A stretch of 64,000 nt of DNA from an uncultured Candidatus Saccharibacteria bacterium (GTDB lineage: Bacteria > Patescibacteriota > Minisyncoccia > UBA6257 > GWB1-50-10). The position numbers were made by a program, and so were the translations under genes. A model generated the notes under the pieces. That model did not search any database and was not told the DNA's origin. It saw only the letters and a list, made by a program, of their open reading frames with translations. Positions 5,775 to 64,000 of this stretch are shown here, in pieces; within the stretch, counting starts at the first letter, position 1; each line of letters begins with the position of its first letter. The stretch spans positions 554 through 64,553 of the forward strand of contig CAYHGT010000003.1 in NCBI GenBank assembly GCA_964356375.1. Reading direction: 5' to 3'.

Positions 5775-7115
5775 ATGGGACTAGACAAACCGACGTTAAA
5801 AACTTTTTTGCGTTTTTTGAGAAACGGGGAGATGCGCTCACTCTACATCGTGCTTGCGATTATTGCCGCAGTATTTATATTTGTTTCATTTCAATATTCT
5901 TTTTCTTTCAGCGTATTGTTGGTTATTTTATTCTCGTTTATTGTGGGACAACTTATCGGCACGTTTATGAAGCTCGCGCGCTTGAGCTCTGAGGAAAAAT
6001 TTAAAACCAAAGAGCGTGATGTGATTATCGCTTTCTTGGAAGACGGGGTAATCATGTATGACCTTAATTTTAGAGTGCTTACATTCAATGCCGCCGCCGA
6101 AACAATTTTTGGTCTTTCTTCAGCTGAGGTACTTGAAAAGCAATTTGACCCGGGCATCGCAAAAACACCGCACTATAGAGTTTTTGTACAAACACTTTTC
6201 CCCTCACTTGCACCATCAATGATACAGGTCTCTGAAACAGATAGGTGGCCTCAGGTTGTTGAGCTTTCGTTTGAAAACCCACGACTTGAGCTACTCATCA
6301 CGCTCCACCAAATAAAAGATGAGGCGGGACGACTTACTGGTTTTATTAAGCTTGTGCATGACATGACACGCGAAAAGGGATTGCTTCAGTCAAAAACTGA
6401 TTTTATCAGTGTTGCCGCGCATCAATTAAGAACGCCTCTTACTGCGCTTCATTGGGCAATTGAAAGTATTGTTAAGTTTTCAGAAAACAATCCGGAAATA
6501 AAGTCGCTTGCTGAAGAAGCGCTTGCTGTATCCGAGCGCTCGCTTAAAATAACAAACGATTTATTGGATGTGTCAAAAATTGAGGAAGGTAAATTTGGAT
6601 ACTCATTCCAACCAACAAACCTCGTTGATTTTGTTGCAAATATTACAAAAGAAACAAAGACACTCGCCGCACAATATGGTATCGCAGTTGAATTCACTCC
6701 CCCATCAACACAAATTCCAGAAGTGTCTATTGATCAAAATCGTCTAAGTTCAGTTCTATTTAACCTTATTGATAATGCAATCCGTTATAACGCAAAAAAC
6801 GGCAAGGTCACAATCTCAATCGGCGAAGAGTCGGGTGGTCGTTTTGCGCGCGTATCGGTTGTGGACACGGGCATCGGCATCTCCAAAGAAGATATTAAGA
6901 ATCTATTCCAGAAGCTATACCGCGGAACAAACGCAGCTCAAGTTGAGCCGAATGGAAGCGGTTTGGGGCTCTACATTGCAAAAAACATTGTGAAAAGGCA
7001 CGGTGGCACAATGGGAGTTGAGTCAGAACTTAACAGGGGCTCAACGTTCTGGTTCACCGTCCCGCTTGATCCAACGCTCGTTCCAAAAAACGAGGTGGTA
7101 ATTGGTGCATTCTAA
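5775..7115 (+). CDS. Two-component sensor histidine kinase (TM + PAS + HisKA + HATPase_c)
   Basis: N-terminal TM segments. H-box ISVAAHQLRTPLTAL. N/G boxes DNAIRYN, VVDTGIGI, GSGLGLYIAKNIVKRHGG. Confidence 0.8.
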   Translation: MGLDKPTLKTFLRFLRNGEMRSLYIVLAIIAAVFIFVSFQYSFSFSVLLVILFSFIVGQLIGTFMKLARLSSEEKFKTKERDVIIAFLEDGVIMYDLNFRVLTFNAAAETIFGLSSAEVLEKQFDPGIAKTPHYRVFVQTLFPSLAPSMIQVSETDRWPQVVELSFENPRLELLITLHQIKDEAGRLTGFIKLVHDMTREKGLLQSKTDFISVAAHQLRTPLTALHWAIESIVKFSENNPEIKSLAEEALAVSERSLKITNDLLDVSKIEEGKFGYSFQPTNLVDFVANITKETKTLAAQYGIAVEFTPPSTQIPEVSIDQNRLSSVLFNLIDNAIRYNAKNGKVTISIGEESGGRFARVSVVDTGIGISKEDIKNLFQKLYRGTNAAQVEPNGSGLGLYIAKNIVKRHGGTMGVESELNRGSTFWFTVPLDPTLVPKNEVVIGAF

Positions 7116-7593
7116 ATATATGATAGTTCTTGGTATAGACCCGGGCACCACAAGAATTGGGTATGGCGCAATTCGCGTATCAAGTAATTCTCTTACTCAT
7201 GTTGCGAGTGGCATTTTGGAAACCGAAACATACCAAAACGATGCGGAACGCCTGCGCGAGATAAGTATAGCGCTAGAAAAATTAATTGTGGATATTAATC
7301 CGGAAAAAGTTGGTGTAGAACGTTTATTTTTCTCAAAAAATAAAAAAACGGCGCTTGCGGTTGCAGAAGCGCGTGGAGTTATTCTTGGAATGGTTGCAAA
7401 AAAACACATTCTTCTTTACGAACTTACTCCGAATGAGGTGAAGCTCGCGGTCACAGGAAATGGGGACTCCTCAAAGCGCGCGGTAGCAAAAATGGTCTCT
7501 CTTTTGCTTCATATCAACGTAGATGGTTTTTTAGACGACGCGACCGACGCACTCGCAATAGCCATCGCATCTGCAAACACGCGACTTTCGTAA
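7102..7593 (+). CDS. ruvC: Crossover junction endodeoxyribonuclease RuvC
   Basis: MIVLGIDPGTTRIGYG start; C-terminal DDATDALAIAIA catalytic region. Confidence 0.9.
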   Translation: MVHSKYMIVLGIDPGTTRIGYGAIRVSSNSLTHVASGILETETYQNDAERLREISIALEKLIVDINPEKVGVERLFFSKNKKTALAVAEARGVILGMVAKKHILLYELTPNEVKLAVTGNGDSSKRAVAKMVSLLLHINVDGFLDDATDALAIAIASANTRLS

Positions 7594-7697
7594 CCGACGA
7601 CTTACGACCAACAACTAACAACGAGTGCTGAGTTAGTTGTTTTTTCGCTCTTTTGTTGTAGGTCGTGGGTTGTTAGTCGCAGGTTTTTGCCAGCATC

Positions 7698-7725: not shown

Positions 7726-7876
7726 TCTGCCATTCAGCTGTAAAAACAAGACAGCTGTACATAAAAGGCTAAGCATTTGTCGCTCTCCTCGGCTCGGAAA
7801 TAAGAAGGAGTACCTCCTTATTTCTCTCGCACTGCGTCAGCGATAAAACGGTCGAATAAAACAACGTTTTACTGGC

Positions 7877-20970: not shown

Positions 20971-21103
20971 CCCGTTAGAAGCGATTAACGCTTATTGTTT
21001 GTTTGTGCGACCAATCAACTGCTGTTTCCAATTTTGAAATTTTTGCCACGCGCACGACCACCGCAGGTGGTCGGCTTCTAACGGGATTCATCCCGTTAAT
21101 TAG
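20968..21103. mobile_element. Miniature inverted-repeat element (CATCCCGTTAGAAG ... CTTCTAACGGGAT, plus an adjacent truncated second terminus) inserted between the two VirB4 halves; contains a 38-aa read-through ORF (minus strand, 20975-21091)
   Basis: 14-bp terminal inverted repeats. Outward reading of each end gives TAA-CGGG-ATG. The interior is an uninterrupted ATG-to-TAA frame of 117 nt (MNPVRSRPPAVVVRVAKISKLETAVDWSHKQTISVNRF). Confidence 0.45.
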
Positions 21104-31217: not shown

Positions 31218-31345
31218 GAATTTTTGTGTTCCACGAAAATTCTTGCTCTTGGTTCACTCGGACGAAATGAAAACTGGCTCTCATTTCGCTTCTCGCTGCC
31301 AAGAGTAGGGCTTGGGGGAAAGGGATTAGGGAATAGCGCGGAACA

Positions 31346-31684
31346 TCACGAGGCGGGGACCCTCAATTTTTTTATTATAACGCTTAAAATTTTAAGAATC
31401 TCAACAATAAGTATTTCGGCGTTTTTCAATTCGTTTTTTTGGCCTAATCCAAGCTCTTTTGCAATAATCAATTGCGTTTCAAGTTCTGCCGCCGAACCAA
31501 GGGCGATACCCAAAAACCGCACGTACTCTCGTCTGCCCCCACGCAAATACCCCTCAGCAATATTTGAAGGAACAGATACCGCCGCTCTTCGCATCTGATT
31601 TGAGAGCGAAAACACTTCCGATTTTGGAAACGTTTCGGTGAGTACATAAATTGTTTTCACCAACCCGATTCCTTTCTGCCACAC
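31346..31684 (-). CDS. Four-helix-bundle protein (TIGR02436-like, '23S rRNA intervening-sequence protein' family)
   Basis: 112 aa with the family-typical ...PKSEVFSLSNQMRRAAVSVPSNIAEG...AELETQL... pattern. Confidence 0.65.
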   Translation of the reverse strand: MWQKGIGLVKTIYVLTETFPKSEVFSLSNQMRRAAVSVPSNIAEGYLRGGRREYVRFLGIALGSAAELETQLIIAKELGLGQKNELKNAEILIVEILKILSVIIKKLRVPAS

Positions 31685-31748
31685 GATTAGTTTTTTGTGT
31701 GATTGCGTGTCTCCTTTTGTTAATCCCTTTTCCCTCCGTCCCTAACCC

Positions 31749-33290
31749 CTATTCCCTAAGTCTATATTGGAACGCCTCAGCAAGGTGTTCTTTTTTTACA
31801 TTTTCCGATTCGGCAAGATCCGCGATGGTTCGCCCCACTTTTAAGACGCGATAATATCCGCGTGTAGAAAGTACCTGTTTTTCTAAAATCTGTTTTAGGA
31901 ATTCTTCAGCGTCCGCATCCGATATAGCATATTTTTCCGTTTGGCGAGAGTTCATTTCGGCATTCGTATGAATGCGTGGAGAGATGTCTTTGAATCGTAT
32001 TCGTTGCATTTCTCGCGCAGTAGCAATTTGTGATTTAAGCGATTGCTCATCACTCATCTCCTTTTCCTCACGTGGTTTTTGTAAATCCTCTATTGGAATT
32101 TTCTTGACCTCAATCTGAATATCAAAGCGATCAAGTAGGGGTCCCGAAAGTTTTTTCTGATAGCGCAGTATTTCGTGCGCGCTACATTTACATTCTTTGT
32201 CACCCGATTCGTAGTGACCGCATGGACATGGATTCATTGCGGCTGCCAAAATAAATCGCGCGGGAAATATAAGCGTTTTTTTTGCGCGCGCAATGTGCAC
32301 CTTCCCGTCTTCAAGCGGCTGGCGGAGTCCTTCCAAAATGTCTCTATGAAATTCAGGAAGTTCATCCAAAAATAATACACCCCTGTGCGACAAACTTATT
32401 TCTCCCGGGCGTGGATTAGTACCTCCGCCCAAAATTGAAACTAAAGAAGCGCTGTGGTGTGGCGCGCGAAATGGGCGCCACTCAATAAATGACGCGCGTT
32501 GTGTAAGTCCCGCAGCGCTGTAAATTCTAGTAATCTCAATACTTTCTTCAAGTGAGGGAAGTGGAAGAATAGAAGGAATCGCTTGAGCGAGCATTGTCTT
32601 TCCAGTGCCTGGAGGTCCGGACATTAAAATATTGTGTCCACCCGCTGCCGCAATCGCGAGGGCGCGTTTCGCCGCCACGTGTCCGCGAATATCGTGGAGC
32701 GCGACTTGTAAGGGCGCATAGCCCGGAACGAATTCCGTGCGCGGTTGTGGTTTTAGAAGTGTTGTGCCTTCAAGATGATCTATAAGCTCTTTCATGGTAT
32801 GCACAGGAATAACTTCTATTCCTTCAACAACCGCAGCTTCTGCCGCATTTTGTGCGGGAAGAAAAAGTTGTGCGAGCCCGCGCGCACGCACAAGAAGTGC
32901 GATGTTTAAGGCGCCGCTAATTGGACGAAGCGCGCCATCAAGCGAAAGCTCTCCCACAAATAACTTGTCGTGCGCGGGAAATGTTTTTAACTGATTACTC
33001 GCAAGCATATACGCGACCGCGATAGGAAGATCAAAACGGGCACCCGCTTTTTTCGTGTCTGCGGGCGCAAGATTTATGGTGATTTTTCTATTTTCGCGCG
33101 TAGGCGGTTTTACGCCCGAATTTTTAAGCGCGGAATTTACACGTTCTTTTGCTTCGCTCACCGCCTTATCTGCAAGTCCCACAATATTAAAAGAGTGGAG
33201 ACCTACATTTAAATCGGCCTCCACCTCTATGAGTTCAGCATCAATTCCCTCAAGTTCCGCCGAGAAAAGTTTCGGAACGGAGCTAATCAT
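31749..33290 (-). CDS. comM: Mg-chelatase-like AAA+ ATPase YifB/ComM (competence-associated)
   Basis: N-terminal Lon-like domain, Walker [14 protein letters not shown], ChlI-type domain, C-terminal Mg_chelatase_C; 513 aa. Confidence 0.85.
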   Translation of the reverse strand: MISSVPKLFSAELEGIDAELIEVEADLNVGLHSFNIVGLADKAVSEAKERVNSALKNSGVKPPTRENRKITINLAPADTKKAGARFDLPIAVAYMLASNQLKTFPAHDKLFVGELSLDGALRPISGALNIALLVRARGLAQLFLPAQNAAEAAVVEGIEVIPVHTMKELIDHLEGTTLLKPQPRTEFVPGYAPLQVALHDIRGHVAAKRALAIAAAGGHNILMSGPPGTGKTMLAQAIPSILPLPSLEESIEITRIYSAAGLTQRASFIEWRPFRAPHHSASLVSILGGGTNPRPGEISLSHRGVLFLDELPEFHRDILEGLRQPLEDGKVHIARAKKTLIFPARFILAAAMNPCPCGHYESGDKECKCSAHEILRYQKKLSGPLLDRFDIQIEVKKIPIEDLQKPREEKEMSDEQSLKSQIATAREMQRIRFKDISPRIHTNAEMNSRQTEKYAISDADAEEFLKQILEKQVLSTRGYYRVLKVGRTIADLAESENVKKEHLAEAFQYRLRE

Positions 33291-33664: not shown

Positions 33665-33771
33665 TCAATCCCGTTAGAGGCAACTGACCCCACCAGTTTC
33701 ATCTATTGTGCCAGCAGGAGCTGTGTGTTGATATCCCAGAAGCGTGGTAGACTCAAGCCTCTAACGGGATC
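33665..33771. repeat. Inverted-repeat mini-element copy A (TCAATCCCGTTAGAGG ... GCCTCTAACGGGATC, about 107 bp)
   Basis: 13-15-bp perfect terminal inverted repeats around a non-conserved spacer of about 80 bp; homologous termini occur at 48436-48537 and 59366-59469. Confidence 0.55.
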
Positions 33772-34555: not shown

Positions 34556-35605
34556 CTACAGTCCGAGTTTTACGGCTGCGGCCTGCGCGCCCGCGTAGCT
34601 CGTGCTAATCACAAGATTATCGTTAAGCCACGCATAGCTAAACGCGACATTCTTTGTTGAATATGAAATGTAGCGCGCAATAAATGTGCTTACTTTTCCA
34701 TCTTTCCAGCGCCCAGCGGTTCCCGGATTCGCAAGGAACATTGACGCAAATTCGTTGTTCGTTTCAAGTTTTTTAATCTCTGTTTGTGCGGTTACAACAT
34801 CCGCGCCCGATGCGAGTTTCAAAACCATACCCGGCCACGCGCCTGTTTTATCAACATAGGTAAAGAACGAGGCGTCTGGTTGGAATAACAACATCGTACT
34901 TGAGGTGAATACACTCGGCACAAAAAGAGGAGCAATCGCGGATAGCGCATATGTTTTTCCGACACTGTTTTTGAAGACAATTTCTTTCAGTAATGGTACG
35001 TCCACGGTGTTTGATTGGATTGCGCTTTTTACTGCATCAAGTGTTACGGACGCGAGCGTTGCTTCGGATATCGTATCGGCAGATGTTTTAAATAACGATG
35101 TATGCATCACGACAGTTTCAAACGGTGATTCGGTGATTGTGCTCGTTGCTTCTATGGGAAGTTCTGGGGGGGGTACCTCTTGATTCACAACGGGTGGTTG
35201 TTCTGTGACTGGCGCTATTACAGGAGCCACTGCAAAGAAGCGAGGGTATATGAAAAAGTAGCCGAGTGCAATAAGCGCACCAACACCAACGAGTACTGCG
35301 AGAAGCATGAACCAATTTGTTTTTGATTTTGGCATTTGCATTTCCGGAATAGCAGATGCGGGATTCGCGTTTCCAAAATCTGTTTGCGGTGGAATTACTG
35401 AAGACGGAGCCGGAATATTTCCGGTGGGATTATATGGCTTCGGTTCGCCACCGCCCGTTTCTTTTATTGAGGCAATGTCGGAAGACATTGTTCTCATTGC
35501 TACTTCTGCTATGGGCGTGTTTGCGAGCGGAACCTCGCCCTCGCCCGCTCCGATCACTGGGTTTTTTTCCGACCAATTTTGACCCGGGGTTTGAAAGTCT
35601 GTCAT
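34556..35605 (-). CDS. Hypothetical single-pass membrane protein with Pro-rich N-terminal region
   Basis: TM WFMLLAVLVGVGALIALGYFFIY; no catalytic motifs. Confidence 0.45.
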   Translation of the reverse strand: MTDFQTPGQNWSEKNPVIGAGEGEVPLANTPIAEVAMRTMSSDIASIKETGGGEPKPYNPTGNIPAPSSVIPPQTDFGNANPASAIPEMQMPKSKTNWFMLLAVLVGVGALIALGYFFIYPRFFAVAPVIAPVTEQPPVVNQEVPPPELPIEATSTITESPFETVVMHTSLFKTSADTISEATLASVTLDAVKSAIQSNTVDVPLLKEIVFKNSVGKTYALSAIAPLFVPSVFTSSTMLLFQPDASFFTYVDKTGAWPGMVLKLASGADVVTAQTEIKKLETNNEFASMFLANPGTAGRWKDGKVSTFIARYISYSTKNVAFSYAWLNDNLVISTSYAGAQAAAVKLGL

Positions 35606-35628
35606 TGCCTTTATTATACACTATCGTA

Positions 35629-35790
35629 TAGGGGTTAGGGATAAGGGGCAAGGGGATAGTCCATGGAAGGGGGGCGAGGGTGTATAGTAATGGAATGTGG
35701 GGGGAACGAAACAAAAAACCGCATGTGCGGTTTTTTGTTCCTAATCCCTAATCCCTAACCCCTTTCCCCTAATCACTATACCCTACTCTT
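35629..35790. repeat. G-rich arm / terminator hairpin / C-rich arm composite (GGGGTTAGGGATAAGGGG ... aaaaaaccgcatgtgcggtttttt ... CCTAATCCCTAATCCCTAACCCC)
   Basis: TTAGGG(A)-like heptamer repeats on one side of a canonical intrinsic terminator, and their reverse complement on the other side. Located between convergent genes. Related copies at 31725-31760, 41646-41711, 44717-44868 and 49857-49936. Confidence 0.6.
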
Positions 35791-41544: not shown

Positions 41545-41728
41545 ATACTACAAAAATCCGAATCACTTCGAAAAATTATACGCCAATTTTGCATTTTTTC
41601 CACACATCGCACCCATTTGCTTTTCATCTATTCCTTCAGCTCCGCCTAACCCCCTATCCCCACCCAAAATAACCAAAAACCTCCGAAACATGAAAGTTCG
41701 GAGGTTTTTATTTTAAGAGAGCGATGCG

Positions 41729-42532: not shown

Positions 42533-42586
42533 ATGTTGATAATTTGTTTTCTACTATTGTTTATTTTTACTATAATTTTCATTATA

Positions 42587-42676
42587 CAAGTTTGTCTTCC
42601 TTCGGTAGATGTCTCATACCTTTGGTAGATCTACCGTAGGTATGACCGTAGGGACATAAAACTCTAACGGGACTTC
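42587..42676. repeat. Roughly 90-bp direct repeat copy 1 (...tttgtcttccttcggtagatgtctcatacctttggtagatctaccgtaggtatgaccgtagggacataaaactctaacgggactt)
   Basis: Near-identical copy at 43180-43269. Ends with the CTCTAACGGGA mini-element terminus; contains the GGTAGATCTACC palindrome. Confidence 0.7.
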
Positions 42677-43144: not shown

Positions 43145-43179
43145 TGATGATTTCTTATTTTTCTACGATTTCCGCCCTA

Positions 43180-43269
43180 CAAATTTGTCTTCCTTCGGTA
43201 GATGTCTCATACCTTTGGTAGATCTACCGTAGGTATGACCGTAGGGACATAAAACTCTAACGGGACTTA
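43180..43269. repeat. Roughly 90-bp direct repeat copy 2
   Basis: See copy 1 (42587-42676). Confidence 0.7.
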
Positions 43270-44597: not shown

Positions 44598-44697
44598 CCT
44601 GTTAGAAGTATAAGTTTAATTTATTTTCGACTGATTTGTGCTGTGTGTGTTCTTGCGTTTTATTCATATTTCTCGTTTTGAGACCTCTAACGGGACG
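44595..44697. repeat. Inverted-repeat mini-element copy D (CATCCTGTTAGAAG ... CCTCTAACGGGACG)
   Basis: Terminal inverted repeats; interior start (TATAAGTTT) shared with the copy at 42488. Confidence 0.5.
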
Positions 44698-44780
44698 GGT
44701 CTCATTTATTATAACAGGGAATGGGGGTAGGGCATAGGGGTTGAGTGGGGCTTAGGGAAAAGGGCTTAGGGGTTAGAAAG

Positions 44781-44805
44781 AAAAAAACCGCATACGCGGT
44801 TTTTG
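44781..44805. terminator. Bidirectional intrinsic terminator (aaaaaaaccgcatacgcggttttt) embedded in a G-arm/C-arm composite repeat
   Basis: Near-identical to the hairpin at 35714-35738; between the solute-binding protein region and the gyrA 3' end. Confidence 0.6.
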
Positions 44806-44862
44806 TCTACGCTTATTTTGCCACACAGCTACTTTTTTTCCCTAAACCCTTACCCCTATTCC

Positions 44863-59365: not shown

Positions 59366-59469
59366 TCAATCCCGTTAGAGATGTCAGAATATCAAAATAC
59401 AAAAGATGCGGTCATCTCAAGCTGTGTTAATAAATGAATGTCTAAAAGACTAATATCTCTAACGGGATC
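59366..59469. repeat. Inverted-repeat mini-element copy C (TCAATCCCGTTAGAGATG ... ATCTCTAACGGGATCAA)
   Basis: Perfect 14-bp terminal inverted repeats; 104 bp; located in the promoter region of the 58604-59350 operon. Confidence 0.55.
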
Positions 59470-63915: not shown

Positions 63916-63987
63916 GGGCGTGTAGTTCAGTGGTAGAACGCTGTCCTGATAAGACAGAGGTCGAAGGTTCGATCCCTTCCACGCCCA
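63916..63987 (+). tRNA. tRNA-Ile (anticodon GAU)
   Basis: Acceptor GGGCGTG/CACGCCC, anticodon stem CTGTC/GACAG with loop CTGATAA, T-loop TTCGATC. Confidence 0.8.
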
Positions 63988-64000
63988 CCCACCAACCTAA

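Follow-up and report, generated by a model that had tools for sequence, protein, structure and literature searches.

Inverted heptanucleotide arrays at gene boundaries and around a PF05635 gene in a Saccharibacteria genome

In several intergenic regions of an uncultured Candidatus Saccharibacteria bacterium, a G-rich tract faces a C-rich tract across a hairpin, and the question arises of what these paired tracts are and why they are situated where genes end. In the analysed stretch of 64,000 nucleotides (hereafter the window), G-rich or C-rich tracts are present at all five sites at which the initial annotation had placed them. A sixth arm, A5, was missing from that annotation, and together with arm A6 it flanks a gene instead of a terminator (Table 1).

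The unit of the arms is an imperfect heptanucleotide, GGG(G)WWA, of which each array contains about 4-9 copies at a spacing of 6-9 nt, with TAG at the unit junctions. TRF assigns a period of 7 or 14 to 35740-35785, 44748-44776, and 49859-49889, and the telomere-like TTAGGG unit proposed at first is accordingly replaced by a heptad. Strings of TTAGGG and TTTAGGG, as in eukaryotic telomere repeats, do occur inside the arms, but the likeness is superficial: The arrays are internal to the replicon and not at its ends, they are short (24-75 nt), imperfect, and composed of mixed units, and they form inverted pairs around terminators, such that telomere-like hexamers were rejected as an explanation. 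Equally rejected was an origin by chance or compositional bias. The 7-nt-periodic pattern GGGNWWRGGGNWWRGGGNWWRGGG has five matches in the window and none in 100 dinucleotide-preserving shuffles, and although 88% of the window is coding, all seven tracts with at least four runs of three or more G or C belong to the heptad family and all seven are intergenic. G-rich motifs that are common throughout coding regions had been named at the outset as an observation that would speak against a repeat family; coding DNA contains no tract with at least four runs, and the suggestion of a small dispersed repeat family is supported.

Table 1. Position and character of the arms, the hairpins, and the PF05635 gene in the window
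Feature	Composite	Coordinates	Strand	Remarks
Hairpin module beside A5		31262-31295	.	Homologous to 49803-49858 and 7786-7850 (family D17); stem changes preserve pairing
Arm A5, G-heptad array GGGCTTGGGGGAAAGGGATTAGGG	E3	31308-31331	+	3' arm; C-rich on the minus (sense) strand of the cassette; pairs with A6 in the whole-cassette fold
PF05635/TIGR02436 four-helix-bundle gene	E3	31346-31684	-	'23S rRNA intervening-sequence protein' (S23p, Avd-like); cargo between the arms
Arm A6, minus strand reads TTAGGGAATAGGGGTTAGGGACGGAGGGAAAAGGG	E3	31725-31760	-	5' arm; second TAG (31749-31751) is the stop of the ChlI/ComM-like gene
Arm A1	E1	35629-35706	+	G-rich on the plus (non-coding) strand; situated upstream of gene 34556-35605 (minus strand); abuts extended -10 box TGTATAAT (35613-35620, minus strand)
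Core intrinsic terminator hairpin, AAAAAACCGCATGTGCGGTTTTTTG	E1	35709-35736	.	Family D20; RNA fold
Arm A2	E1	35739-35790	-	mRNA strand G-rich; starts at PNPase TAG stop (35783-35785); TRF: CCTAATC x 5.6
Arm A8, weak, three runs, minus strand reads GGGTGGGGATAGGGGGTTAGG		41646-41670	-	After terminator 41676-41711; upstream of tRNA-Leu
Arm A3, 8 G-runs	E2	44717-44776	+	Abuts extended -10 box TGTTATAAT (44708-44716, minus strand) of solute-binding-protein gene; conserved in L235
Core terminator hairpin, AAAAACCGCATACGCGGTTTTTG	E2	44781-44805	.	Sequence is that of a generic terminator
Arm A4	E2	44838-44868	-	mRNA strand G-rich; starts at GyrA TAG stop (44863-44865)
Arm A7	E5 (half composite)	49857-49890	+	Hairpin module 49803-49858 before, terminator after
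Terminator hairpin beside A7, AAGACCCCCGCCTATCGGCGGGGGTCTT and T-run	E5	49910-49937	-	Terminator consensus scan

Paired arms are convergent, such that on whichever strand they are read a G arm comes first, followed by the centre and a C arm, and E1, E2, and E3 are such convergent inverted pairs. The TAG stop codons of PNPase, GyrA, and ChlI either mark the start of arms A2, A4, and A6 or are overlapped by them, and directly after these three stop codons the mRNA strand is the G-rich one. On the non-coding strand, arm A1 precedes a start codon by 24 bp; A3, A5, and A7 are situated 90-120 bp away. Concerning the orientation of the neighbouring genes, the description as five convergent gene ends holds for the site at 49857 only; at 35629-35790, 44717-44868, 41646-41711, and 31725-31760, the genes are co-directional on the minus strand. 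The newly found arm A5 is also located at convergent gene ends. What the arms share with one another is the heptad consensus alone (family D2, 69-71% identity), and their lengths differ.

The composites E1 (35629-35790) and E2 (44717-44868) contain no ORF and are situated between co-directional genes, where their arms occupy the two free spacers of the gene boundary, namely that between stop codon and terminator and that between terminator and extended -10 promoter. At the 3' ends of PNPase and GyrA, the order is stop TAG, G arm, terminator, C arm, and TGnTATAAT. The RNA folds of E1 (-66.3 kcal/mol, z = -5.7) and E2 (-57.3 kcal/mol, z = -4.9) were matched in stability by no shuffle, and both folds contain pairing between the two arms. 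The near-identity that had been noted for the core hairpins is confirmed (CCGCATGTGCGG and CCGCATACGCGG), the two cores being 78% identical over 36 nt. The core hairpin of E1, with 15 pairs in the RNA fold, is palindromic and can therefore be read as a terminator from either strand. Predicted intrinsic terminators form the centres of E1, E2, and E5, consisting of a GC-rich hairpin and a T-run, and the terminator consensus scan picks 44804-44783 and 49937-49910. The association of the arms with terminators is hence correct insofar as an intrinsic terminator is their usual neighbour in the window, but arms also bracket a PF05635 gene, both here and in many phyla. That arms and terminator together constitute a private mobile unit was rejected: The core AAAAACCGCATRYGCGGTTTTT is found in 78 metagenome loci, and it is accompanied by arms only in the orthologue L235.

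Of the remaining sites, E5, a candidate for a decayed cassette, is homologous to E3 in the arm and the hairpin module, excluding the 3' end of the gene. The 41646 site, a half site as E5 is, is a weak member of the family, in which the order on the transcribed strand is reversed, the terminator being followed by the G arm.

E3 (31308-31760) is a full cassette of arm, gene, and arm, situated between two convergent genes, the ChlI/ComM-like gene and a LysM-peptidase gene. The enclosed gene matches the Pfam family PF05635 with E = 4e-34, TIGR02436 with 120 bits (cut-off 24), and the structure PDB 2GSC (XCC0516) with E = 1e-20. In the fold of the cassette, the arms pair and form the closing structure (z = -2.6). 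Anti-phage defence annotation (PADLOC) gave no match, and Rfam at gathering thresholds yielded tRNAs only, in the window as well as in eight PF05635 loci; rRNA is absent from the window, and E3 lies between protein-coding genes. In the window copy of the PF05635 gene, the ancestral ATG is lost.

Comparison with relatives identifies E3 as an insertion of about 530 bp. L007, L008, and L010 lack this insertion at the syntenic site, the gap between their ChlI and LysM genes measuring 13-26 bp, whereas the closer lineage L134, with a ChlI of 95% identity (vs. 91% for L007), possesses it. Among the sister strains L132 and L134-L136, the number of heptads in arm A6 differs in steps of about 14-21 nt, i.e., roughly two to three heptads, and variation of the arms between relatives is seen in L132, L134-L136, L217, and L235. 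In relatives whose PNPase is 93%, 85%, and 75% identical, the syntenic loci contain plain terminators and no arms, and the orthologous site of E1 in L008 contains a similar hairpin without arms, to which the core hairpin of E1 appears to be orthologous. The arms are therefore lineage-specific, as had been suggested, in the sense that their sequence flavour is narrow, but not in kind, since arrays of this kind are known in Xanthomonas and Nostoc (PMC4692102). With arms absent at the syntenic sites of L007, L008/L009, and L010, a conserved regulatory element of these genes was rejected as a general claim, and because close relatives thrive without arms, any function of the arms must be dispensable. 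E2 is about 91% identical in L235, compared to 86% for gyrA, while the adjacent leader is unalignable; compensatory changes in E2 between the window and L235 were not seen. Arrays are gained and lost among close relatives, their length changes by about one to three heptads at a time, in agreement with replication slippage, and at least the gene-bearing form would spread as a unit.

The flanks of PF05635 genes in general were surveyed with 90 such genes and 841 control ORFs in 80 species genomes of many phyla. The period-7 signal of the flanks amounts to 17.8 and 15.7 matches of 28, compared to 12.3 in the controls, whereas the periods 5, 6, and 9 exhibit no excess and period 8 only a slight one (13.4 and 13.0 vs. 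12.0). An alignment of the upstream flank with the reverse-complemented downstream flank attains a score of at least 15 in 61% of the PF05635 genes, but in only 5% of the controls. At least one period-7 array accompanies 81% of the 90 genes, with arrays on both sides in 48%, and about 19% of the surveyed genes possess none. The most frequent array length is four units, five being also common, and this applies to G-rich and non-G-rich flavours alike; flavours without G-runs but with the same architecture are, e.g., GCTTCTA, GTTGACA, CAGGAGT, and CGTACTT. The polarity of the arms is canonical in 32 cases and opposite in two, and tracts of the G type are 15-27 times denser near a PF05635 gene. 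The flavour of the heptads follows the identity of the PF05635 proteins (r = -0.23; 0 of 500 permutations), cross-phylum pairs included. ORF-less arrays in PF05635 loci match the gene-flanking flavour within one mismatch in 32% of cases, vs. 6% for random other loci, and in one locus (L144) a second flavour is found that is unrelated to the arms of its PF05635 gene. Curated plasmid records from Nostoc punctiforme, Picosynechococcus, Riemerella, and Stanieria repeat the pattern of PF05635 gene and heptads. In the reverse direction, 120 stretches of viral contigs (1-15 kb of larger contigs) were selected by the G-heptad pattern, and a PF05635 ORF is present in none of them. Within the stretches sampled, arrays thus occur in the absence of the gene, and the arrays were rejected as a predictor of a nearby PF05635 gene; the link runs from the gene to the arrays. 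An earlier report of this link was not found in the literature searched, which is no proof that none exists.

From this survey, i.e., from the proportion of genes with arrays, the inverted relation of their flanks, and the preference for four units, it follows that the arms in the window represent a local flavour of a pan-bacterial architecture. On balance, we consider it somewhat probable that they are such a flavour of inverted heptad arrays around PF05635 genes and that they act as an extended hairpin at transcript boundaries. The latter role is likely by analogy with the closing stem of intervening sequences in rRNA. Such sequences of the 23S rRNA carry an S23p ORF in Leptospira, Coxiella, and Brucella, and their terminal inverted repeats form a stem of 28 bp, the length of four heptads, which is cut by RNase III (PMC4990558). 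Inverted heptad arrays bracketing PF05635 genes would share this design of closing stem and S23p ORF. In a read-through transcript, the G arm would pair with the C arm and form an imperfect helix of about 30 bp around the terminator or the ORF, which could reinforce or insulate the transcript boundary or, following the same analogy, could serve as a processing site for RNase III.

Despite this similarity in design, there are some differences among these elements. E3 resembles a 23S rRNA intervening sequence in that the PF05635/S23p ORF lies in the loop and the inverted arms close the minimum-free-energy fold, but among the composites this is true of E3 only; E1 and E2 do not contain an ORF. 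Furthermore, E3 is situated outside an rRNA gene, does not represent an insertion in helix 25 or 45, and has arms made of heptad repeats. Common to intervening sequences and heptad cassettes is a sporadic distribution, which suggests horizontal spread (PMC4990558). Two points weigh on the extended hairpin itself. Given efficient termination at the core hairpin, transcription would seldom extend into the C arm and the long helix would seldom be formed, which counts against this role; at about 65-70% identity, moreover, the arms match in their GGG blocks only, and internal loops therefore abound in the helix. Further points against the main reading are the lack of compensatory changes in E2 relative to L235, the PF05635 genes without a period-7 array, the viral-contig stretches with arrays but no PF05635 ORF, and the close relatives without arms. 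Finally, the formation of a stem does not need a periodicity of 7 nt, and the hairpin model leaves this periodicity unexplained.

Unexpected in a plain stem, a period of 7 nt would be a natural consequence of protein contacts that recur along the array, as in an alternative that we regard as rather unlikely: The heptad arrays would serve the PF05635 protein, a toroidal pentamer, either as mobility ends or as cognate sites of binding, with one subunit per heptad on single-stranded RNA or DNA. The S23p/PF05635 protein is a homopentamer (PMC4990558), the structure 2GSC comprises five chains, and the arrays beside the gene of this protein most often have four units, five being also common. The arms of the gene itself would then serve autoregulation or propagation, and E1, E2, and E5 would be targets in trans or sites seeded by the protein. 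The tight linkage of arrays and gene across phyla agrees with this, as do the covariation of flavour and protein sequence and the flavour shared by solo arrays in the same locus. Such covariation, however, is equally expected if arms and gene merely travel together, and the viral-contig stretches with arrays but no PF05635 ORF, the unrelated second flavour in L144, and the lost ATG of the window copy all argue against recognition by the pentamer.

Compared to this, we consider it improbable that the arms act, as initially annotated, by a G-quadruplex on the G strand and an i-motif on the C strand, which would pause the polymerase, strengthen termination, or shield 3' ends. Of the eight arms, seven satisfy the sequence rule of four G3+ runs with spacers of 1-7 nt, and the strand that is G-rich right behind three stop codons is the mRNA strand. 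The closest description of the window arms is that of the G-rich heptameric repeats GGGAATC of Xanthomonas and GGGGA(C/T)T of Nostoc (the cyanobacterial STRR1 type), whose function is unknown (Rehm et al. 2015, PMC4692102); both form G-quadruplexes in vitro, with about four units preferred. Nevertheless, since flavours without G-runs exhibit the same architecture and the same mode of four units, the G-quadruplex is not the general principle, and G-quadruplex potential is no prerequisite for the preference for four units that had been reported. In addition, the nearby complementary arm favours a duplex or hairpin, and relatives do without arms altogether. The G-quadruplex reading is thereby weakened, whereas a candidate role of the arms in enhancing termination or in protecting 3' ends is in itself plausible.

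In both the repeats of Rehm et al. and the window arms, the unit is 7 nt long with a tract of three to four G, the arrays are intergenic with a preference for about four units, they lie mostly between co-directional ORFs and form convergent pairs, and they vary between close relatives. The repeats of Rehm et al. are characterised by hundreds of copies in a genome. In X. campestris, 70 convergent inverted heptamer pairs have been reported, and in Xanthomonas and Nostoc convergent heptanucleotide pairs are known near stop and start codons (PMC4692102). The window arms differ from these repeats in their occurrence in Patescibacteria, in a GGG(G)WWA unit that has TAG at its junctions, and in being more degenerate; furthermore, they enclose an intrinsic terminator hairpin, whereas terminators are not mentioned in that study (PMC4692102). 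Nor is a link to PF05635 drawn there, although the supplement lists a GGGAATC repeat over the start codon of XCC0516, the PF05635 protein of PDB 2GSC (PMC4692102).

To a similarly low degree of probability, the arms could be functionless slippage repeats in the tolerant spacers around terminators, the opposite arm being copied by template switching at the hairpin. Heptamers are the over-represented class of long repeats in bacteria and vary in length in Xanthomonas species (PMC4692102), and the differing presence among close relatives, the length steps of the sister strains, and the fact that the arms fill exactly the non-functional spacers all suit such an origin. What is not expected from local slippage alone is the cross-phylum enrichment at one gene family and a flavour that tracks the protein. 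The polarity is consistently convergent, and conservation is higher in E2 than in the coding DNA around it, beside a leader that cannot be aligned, both of which argue against repeats without function. Very improbable, finally, are classical MITEs with terminal inverted repeats and a transposase encoded elsewhere: Inverted arms, an intergenic position, a length of 150-160 bp, the similar cores of E1 and E2, and sites that represent insertions relative to some relatives would fit, but no target-site duplication is definable in alignments to empty or variant sites, the arms of unequal length have no common terminal sequence beyond the heptad consensus, the core hairpin is generic and arm-less in 77 unrelated metagenome loci, and neither a transposase next to the composites in the window nor a transposase-bearing relative was found.

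The REP/BIME elements of enterobacteria are thought to stabilise upstream mRNA and to modulate termination. Like the window arms, they occur dispersed at 3' gene ends as short, imperfect palindromes in inverted pairs; unlike them, they contain no tandem heptads, are linked to the RAYT transposase and not to PF05635, and exhibit no sequence similarity. Among the ORFs next to the window arms, no RAYT was found. Another group of heptamers, TAACTGA and further direct repeats, is described for Beggiatoaceae, cyanobacteria, and Bacteroidetes (PMC4679880). Equally to the window arms, the TAACTGA repeats are intergenic heptamer arrays (of 2-6 units) near start codons with a patchy phylogenetic distribution, and relatives without them have shorter intergenic regions, which resembles the case in the window; however, they are almost all direct and not G-rich, and PF05635 is not mentioned (PMC4679880).

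Returning to the reading of the arms as inverted arrays that belong to PF05635 genes, the comparison ties together two puzzles of about thirty years, namely the bacterial heptanucleotide repeats (STRR, GGGAATC, TAACTGA) and the S23p/PF05635 protein of rRNA intervening sequences. The tie is a strong and easily reproduced statistical link, based on this locus and the comparison of 80 genomes. We tentatively propose, while considering it less probable than not, that heptad arrays and PF05635 pentamer constitute one unrecognised, horizontally spreading bacterial cassette system, in which the protein would recognise or require about four to five cognate heptads on both sides of its gene and at ORF-less satellites at gene boundaries; such a system would unite the 23S rRNA intervening sequences, STRR, GGGAATC, and the window arms. 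Each of the two puzzles gains a concrete question, i.e., whether the pentamer binds the flanking heptads and whether RNase III cuts the arm helix. Concerning genome annotation, the cassette is recognisable and can supply the stop codons of its neighbours, break short-read assemblies, and sit in operons; in Picosynechococcus, it is found inside an operon between cas10 and cmr3.

The repeat arms of the window consist of imperfect heptads of the form GGG(G)WWA and not, as the initial annotation had it, of telomere-like TTAGGG hexamers: TRF assigns them periods of 7 or 14 (CCTAATC x 5.6, GGGCTTA x 4.1, AGGGATTAGGGAAA x 2.2). The G- and C-rich tracts described there are present at their places, and the E3 arm at 31308-31331, which had been overlooked, was added by a regular expression for at least three runs of three or more G. 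All seven tracts with at least four runs, on both strands of the 64 kb, are members of the heptad-arm family, and none lies inside a credible gene (the window is 88% coding). The 7-nt-periodic pattern GGGNWWRGGGNWWRGGGNWWRGGG has five matches in the window and none in 100 dinucleotide-preserving shuffles; together with the period-7 and period-14 arrays and the intergenic placement, this identifies the tracts as real and non-random. The initial observation is thus upheld, its description had to be corrected in part, and its interpretation is right in part.

Coordinates of heptad arms and other features in the window
Feature	Position	Context
E1	35629-35706 (G-rich on + strand), hairpin AAAAAACCGCATGTGCGGTTTTTTG, 35739-35790 (C-rich)	between PNPase stop codon 35783-35785 (-) and start of next minus-strand gene (35605)
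E2	44717-44776 with 44838-44868	between GyrA stop 44863-44865 and solute-binding-protein gene
E3 arms	31308-31331 and 31725-31760	bracket ORF 31346-31684 (-), PF05635, E = 4e-34
E5 arm	49857-49890	flanked by two hairpins; junction probably convergent
Weak member	41646-41670	three runs, order reversed
TGTATAAT box	within 35603-35622	349-aa gene 3' of PNPase
Second heptad flavour	7594-7684	directly 3' of stop codon of gene 7102-7593 (+)
Inverted-repeat element of ~100 nt	20971-21085, 33670-33768, 44607-44694, 48440-48533, 51519-51615, 59371-59466
Hairpin module	7786-7850, 49803-49858, 31262-31295
111-nt direct repeat	42565-42675 and 43158-43268	pilin region
tRNA-Ile, anticodon UAU	53504-53576
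tRNA-Ile(GAU)	63916-63989

By its PNPase homologues, T4SS-pilin genes and tRNA-Ile(UAU), the host belongs to the Patescibacteria (Paceibacterota / Jorgensenbacteria-like). E1 and E2 are situated at co-directional junctions and not at the convergent gene ends originally proposed. On the mRNA strand, both exhibit the same order of TAG stop codon, which is itself the first unit of the arm, G arm, terminator hairpin, C arm and extended -10 box (TGTATAAT or TGTTATAAT), the latter at a distance of only some bases from the next gene or its leader; the convergently oriented arms thus fill exactly the two free spacers of the gene boundary. In the predicted RNA folds, the arms pair around the terminator both in E1 (-66.3 kcal/mol, z = -5.7) and in E2 (-57.3 kcal/mol, z = -4.9). 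The function-unassigned 349-aa gene 3' of PNPase possesses a conserved TGTATAAT box in the window and in the related loci L007, L008, L010 and L217; since this box ends only about 7-9 nt ahead of the ATG in all of them, a leaderless or near-leaderless mRNA is suggested.

In E3, the centre is a gene. Its product is a PF05635 '23S rRNA intervening-sequence protein', matches TIGR02436 ('four helix bundle protein') with 120 bits (cut-off 24) and is homologous to PDB 2GSC, i.e., XCC0516 of Xanthomonas campestris. On the sense strand of this gene, G arm, centre and C arm follow each other as in E1 and E2, the TAG stop of the upstream ChlI/ComM-like gene falls within an arm, and the predicted fold of the whole 471 nt is closed by the arms. 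At 31706-31708 (minus strand), ACG is found where the sister strains L132 and L134 have the ATG start, such that the ORF of the window can only begin eight codons downstream, at GTG 31684. The gene is possibly in decay, a state likewise described for the Coxiella S23p ORF (PMC4990558).

The connection of heptads with PF05635 extends across bacteria. A protein-based scan with one genome per species yielded 80 loci with homologues of 46-61% identity, spanning Patescibacteria, Acidobacteriota, Rickettsiales, Bacteroidota, Omnitrophota, Planctomycetota, Firmicutes, Elusimicrobiota and others. Within 300 bp of these genes, the density of G-heptad tracts is 0.585 per kb versus 0.021 elsewhere (27x), and the polarity is canonical (G upstream, C downstream) in 32 arms and opposite in 2. 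Most of the remaining genes have flanking heptads that differ in sequence, always arranged as an inverted pair (e.g., GGTCGTA, GCTTCTA/GGTTCTA, GCGTCTA, GTTGACA, CGTACTT). Concerning the 130-bp flanks of 90 PF05635 genes, compared with 841 control ORFs from the same loci, the period-7 signal amounts to 17.8 and 15.7 matches per 28 versus 12.3, with no excess at periods 5, 6 and 9 and a slight one at period 8 (13.4/13.0 versus 12.0). Aligned with the reverse-complemented downstream flank, the upstream flank reaches a score of at least 15 in 61% of the PF05635 genes and 5% of the controls, and of at least 18 in 52% and 2%, respectively. A TRF period-7 array adjoins 81% of the 90 genes, on both sides in 48%; median copy number is 4.3 in GGG-containing flavours and 4.4 in the others, the most frequent value being 4 in either group. 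The flavour of the heptads follows protein identity (r = -0.23; 0 of 500 permutations) even across phyla, as between two MAGs of Gammaproteobacteria and Gottesmanbacteria and two of Omnitrophota and Nitrospinota. Elsewhere in these loci, the same flavour also appears in arrays and pairs that lack an ORF, which correspond to E1 and E2 of the window. The pattern recurs in curated plasmid records (Nostoc punctiforme, CAGGAGT x 8; Riemerella, AAGGTTC; Stanieria and Nostoc 7120, GCAGAAG/CTTCTGC). In the Picosynechococcus sp. PCC 7003 plasmid NZ_CP016476.1 (locus L222, 126209-127269), a PF05635 cassette with GGAGATA arms lies inside a type III-B CRISPR operon, between cas10/cmr2 and cmr3.

The association holds from gene to arrays and not in reverse: arrays do not predict a PF05635 gene, and among the matches listed, 0 of 120 viral-contig stretches picked by the G-heptad pattern contained a PF05635 ORF. 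G-heptad arrays were found in at least 120 IMG/VR contigs (L012-L131, e.g., L029, L030, L035, L037, L039, L088, L103, L127); by a rough estimate, only a handful would be expected by chance. Most of the contigs have a GC content of about 0.6, and many exhibit a G array, short spacer and C array, or an array beside a terminator-like hairpin; some matches, in contigs of giant viruses, are genuine telomere-like runs of TTTAGGG.

G-rich heptamer repeats without known function were described by Rehm et al. 2015 (PMC4692102), with the unit GGGAATC for Xanthomonas and GGGGA(C/T)T for Nostoc. Equally to the window arms, they show an intergenic bias, a preference for four units, a position between aligned ORFs and length variation between species, and convergent inverted pairs, 70 of them in X. 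campestris, are found as well. The window element is a variant of this known but unexplained kind of repeat, with a new phylum, a new unit and terminators at its centre. According to the supplement of that study, repeat #15 overlaps the start codon of XCC0516 and thus sits on the gene of the PF05635 protein of PDB 2GSC, a connection not drawn within the paper. The PF05635 protein is likewise not mentioned in the TAACTGA repeat paper, and in Nostoc, contiguous heptamers are reported by a preprint to exert regulatory effects and to have an unidentified interacting partner. As our literature search found no paper tying PF05635 to heptad repeats, their strong association is apparently unreported; it makes both old puzzles, the heptad repeats and the S23p/PF05635 protein, testable.

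Among relatives, E1 is identical in six conspecific metagenome contigs. No arm and no PF05635 gene exist in the syntenic loci (12-22 kb searched for arms) of L007 (PNPase identity 93%), L008/L009 (GCA_026396755.1, 85%) and L010 (GCA_037444725.1, 75%), where the 3' ends of PNPase and GyrA are plain terminator-plus-promoter spacers of 77-123 bp. In relatives lacking the PF05635 gene, the ChlI and LysM-peptidase genes converge 13-26 bp apart, which identifies E3 as an insertion of about 530 bp. Its cassette is present in the closer lineage L134 (ChlI 95% identical versus 91% for L007), and the strains L132 and L134-L136 differ in the length of its arms by two to three heptads. E1 recurs with other arm lengths in L217 (PNPase 88%), so either L007 has lost or replaced it, or there were two gains. 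In L235 (gyrA 86% identical), arms and terminator of E2 are about 91% identical, whereas the adjoining 5' leader is unalignable. Arms turn over between relatives and, where kept, are conserved at least as well as coding DNA.

In the favoured reading, the two arms of a read-through RNA, or of extruded DNA, would form a helix of about 30 bp with the terminator or ORF inside. [quoted passage not shown] Insulation of the transcript boundary is one possible effect of the arm helix, which would also be a candidate RNase III site. Alternatively, the arrays could be bound by the PF05635 pentamer or serve as its mobility ends, which would account for the 7-nt period, the length of 4-5 units and the co-variation of flavour. 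The Xanthomonas and Nostoc repeats form G4 in vitro (PMC4692102), and the arms, too, might work via G4 and i-motif structures; non-G flavours behave as the G-rich ones do, which weakens this explanation. Neutral slippage could also generate such arrays, but E2 is conserved, the polarity is fixed and the arms are associated with the PF05635 gene, all of which weakens this account. A classical MITE is unlikely, as no target-site duplication is definable, the copies do not share termini and the terminator at the core is of a generic type.

The second heptad flavour comprises CGACTTA/CGACCAA/CAACTAA, a centre and GTTGTAG/GTCGTGG/GTTGTTA as an inverted pair, followed by TTTTT; the terminator hairpin itself appears to be made of heptads. 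Two of the three copies of a hairpin module (cctcggctcggaaa..stem-loop..tttctctcgc.ctgcgtc.gcgata) adjoin heptad arms, and its stem varies in sequence with pairing preserved. The roughly 100-nt inverted-repeat element (CCCGTTAGAG-N(74-95)-CTCTAACGGG) has no match in Rfam; its 3' arm abuts an ATG start codon in three of the six copies (..CTAACGGGATG). One copy lies in the leader of the gene for the solute-binding protein and is missing from the orthologous leader of L235. Both a MITE and a 5'-UTR regulatory element come into question for this repeat. The 111-nt repeat copies, 92% identical, lie upstream of two neighbouring minus-strand genes. Besides tRNA-Ile(GAU), the window encodes a tRNA-Ile with anticodon UAU, which is unusual for bacteria, AUA normally being read by a lysidine-modified CAU tRNA.
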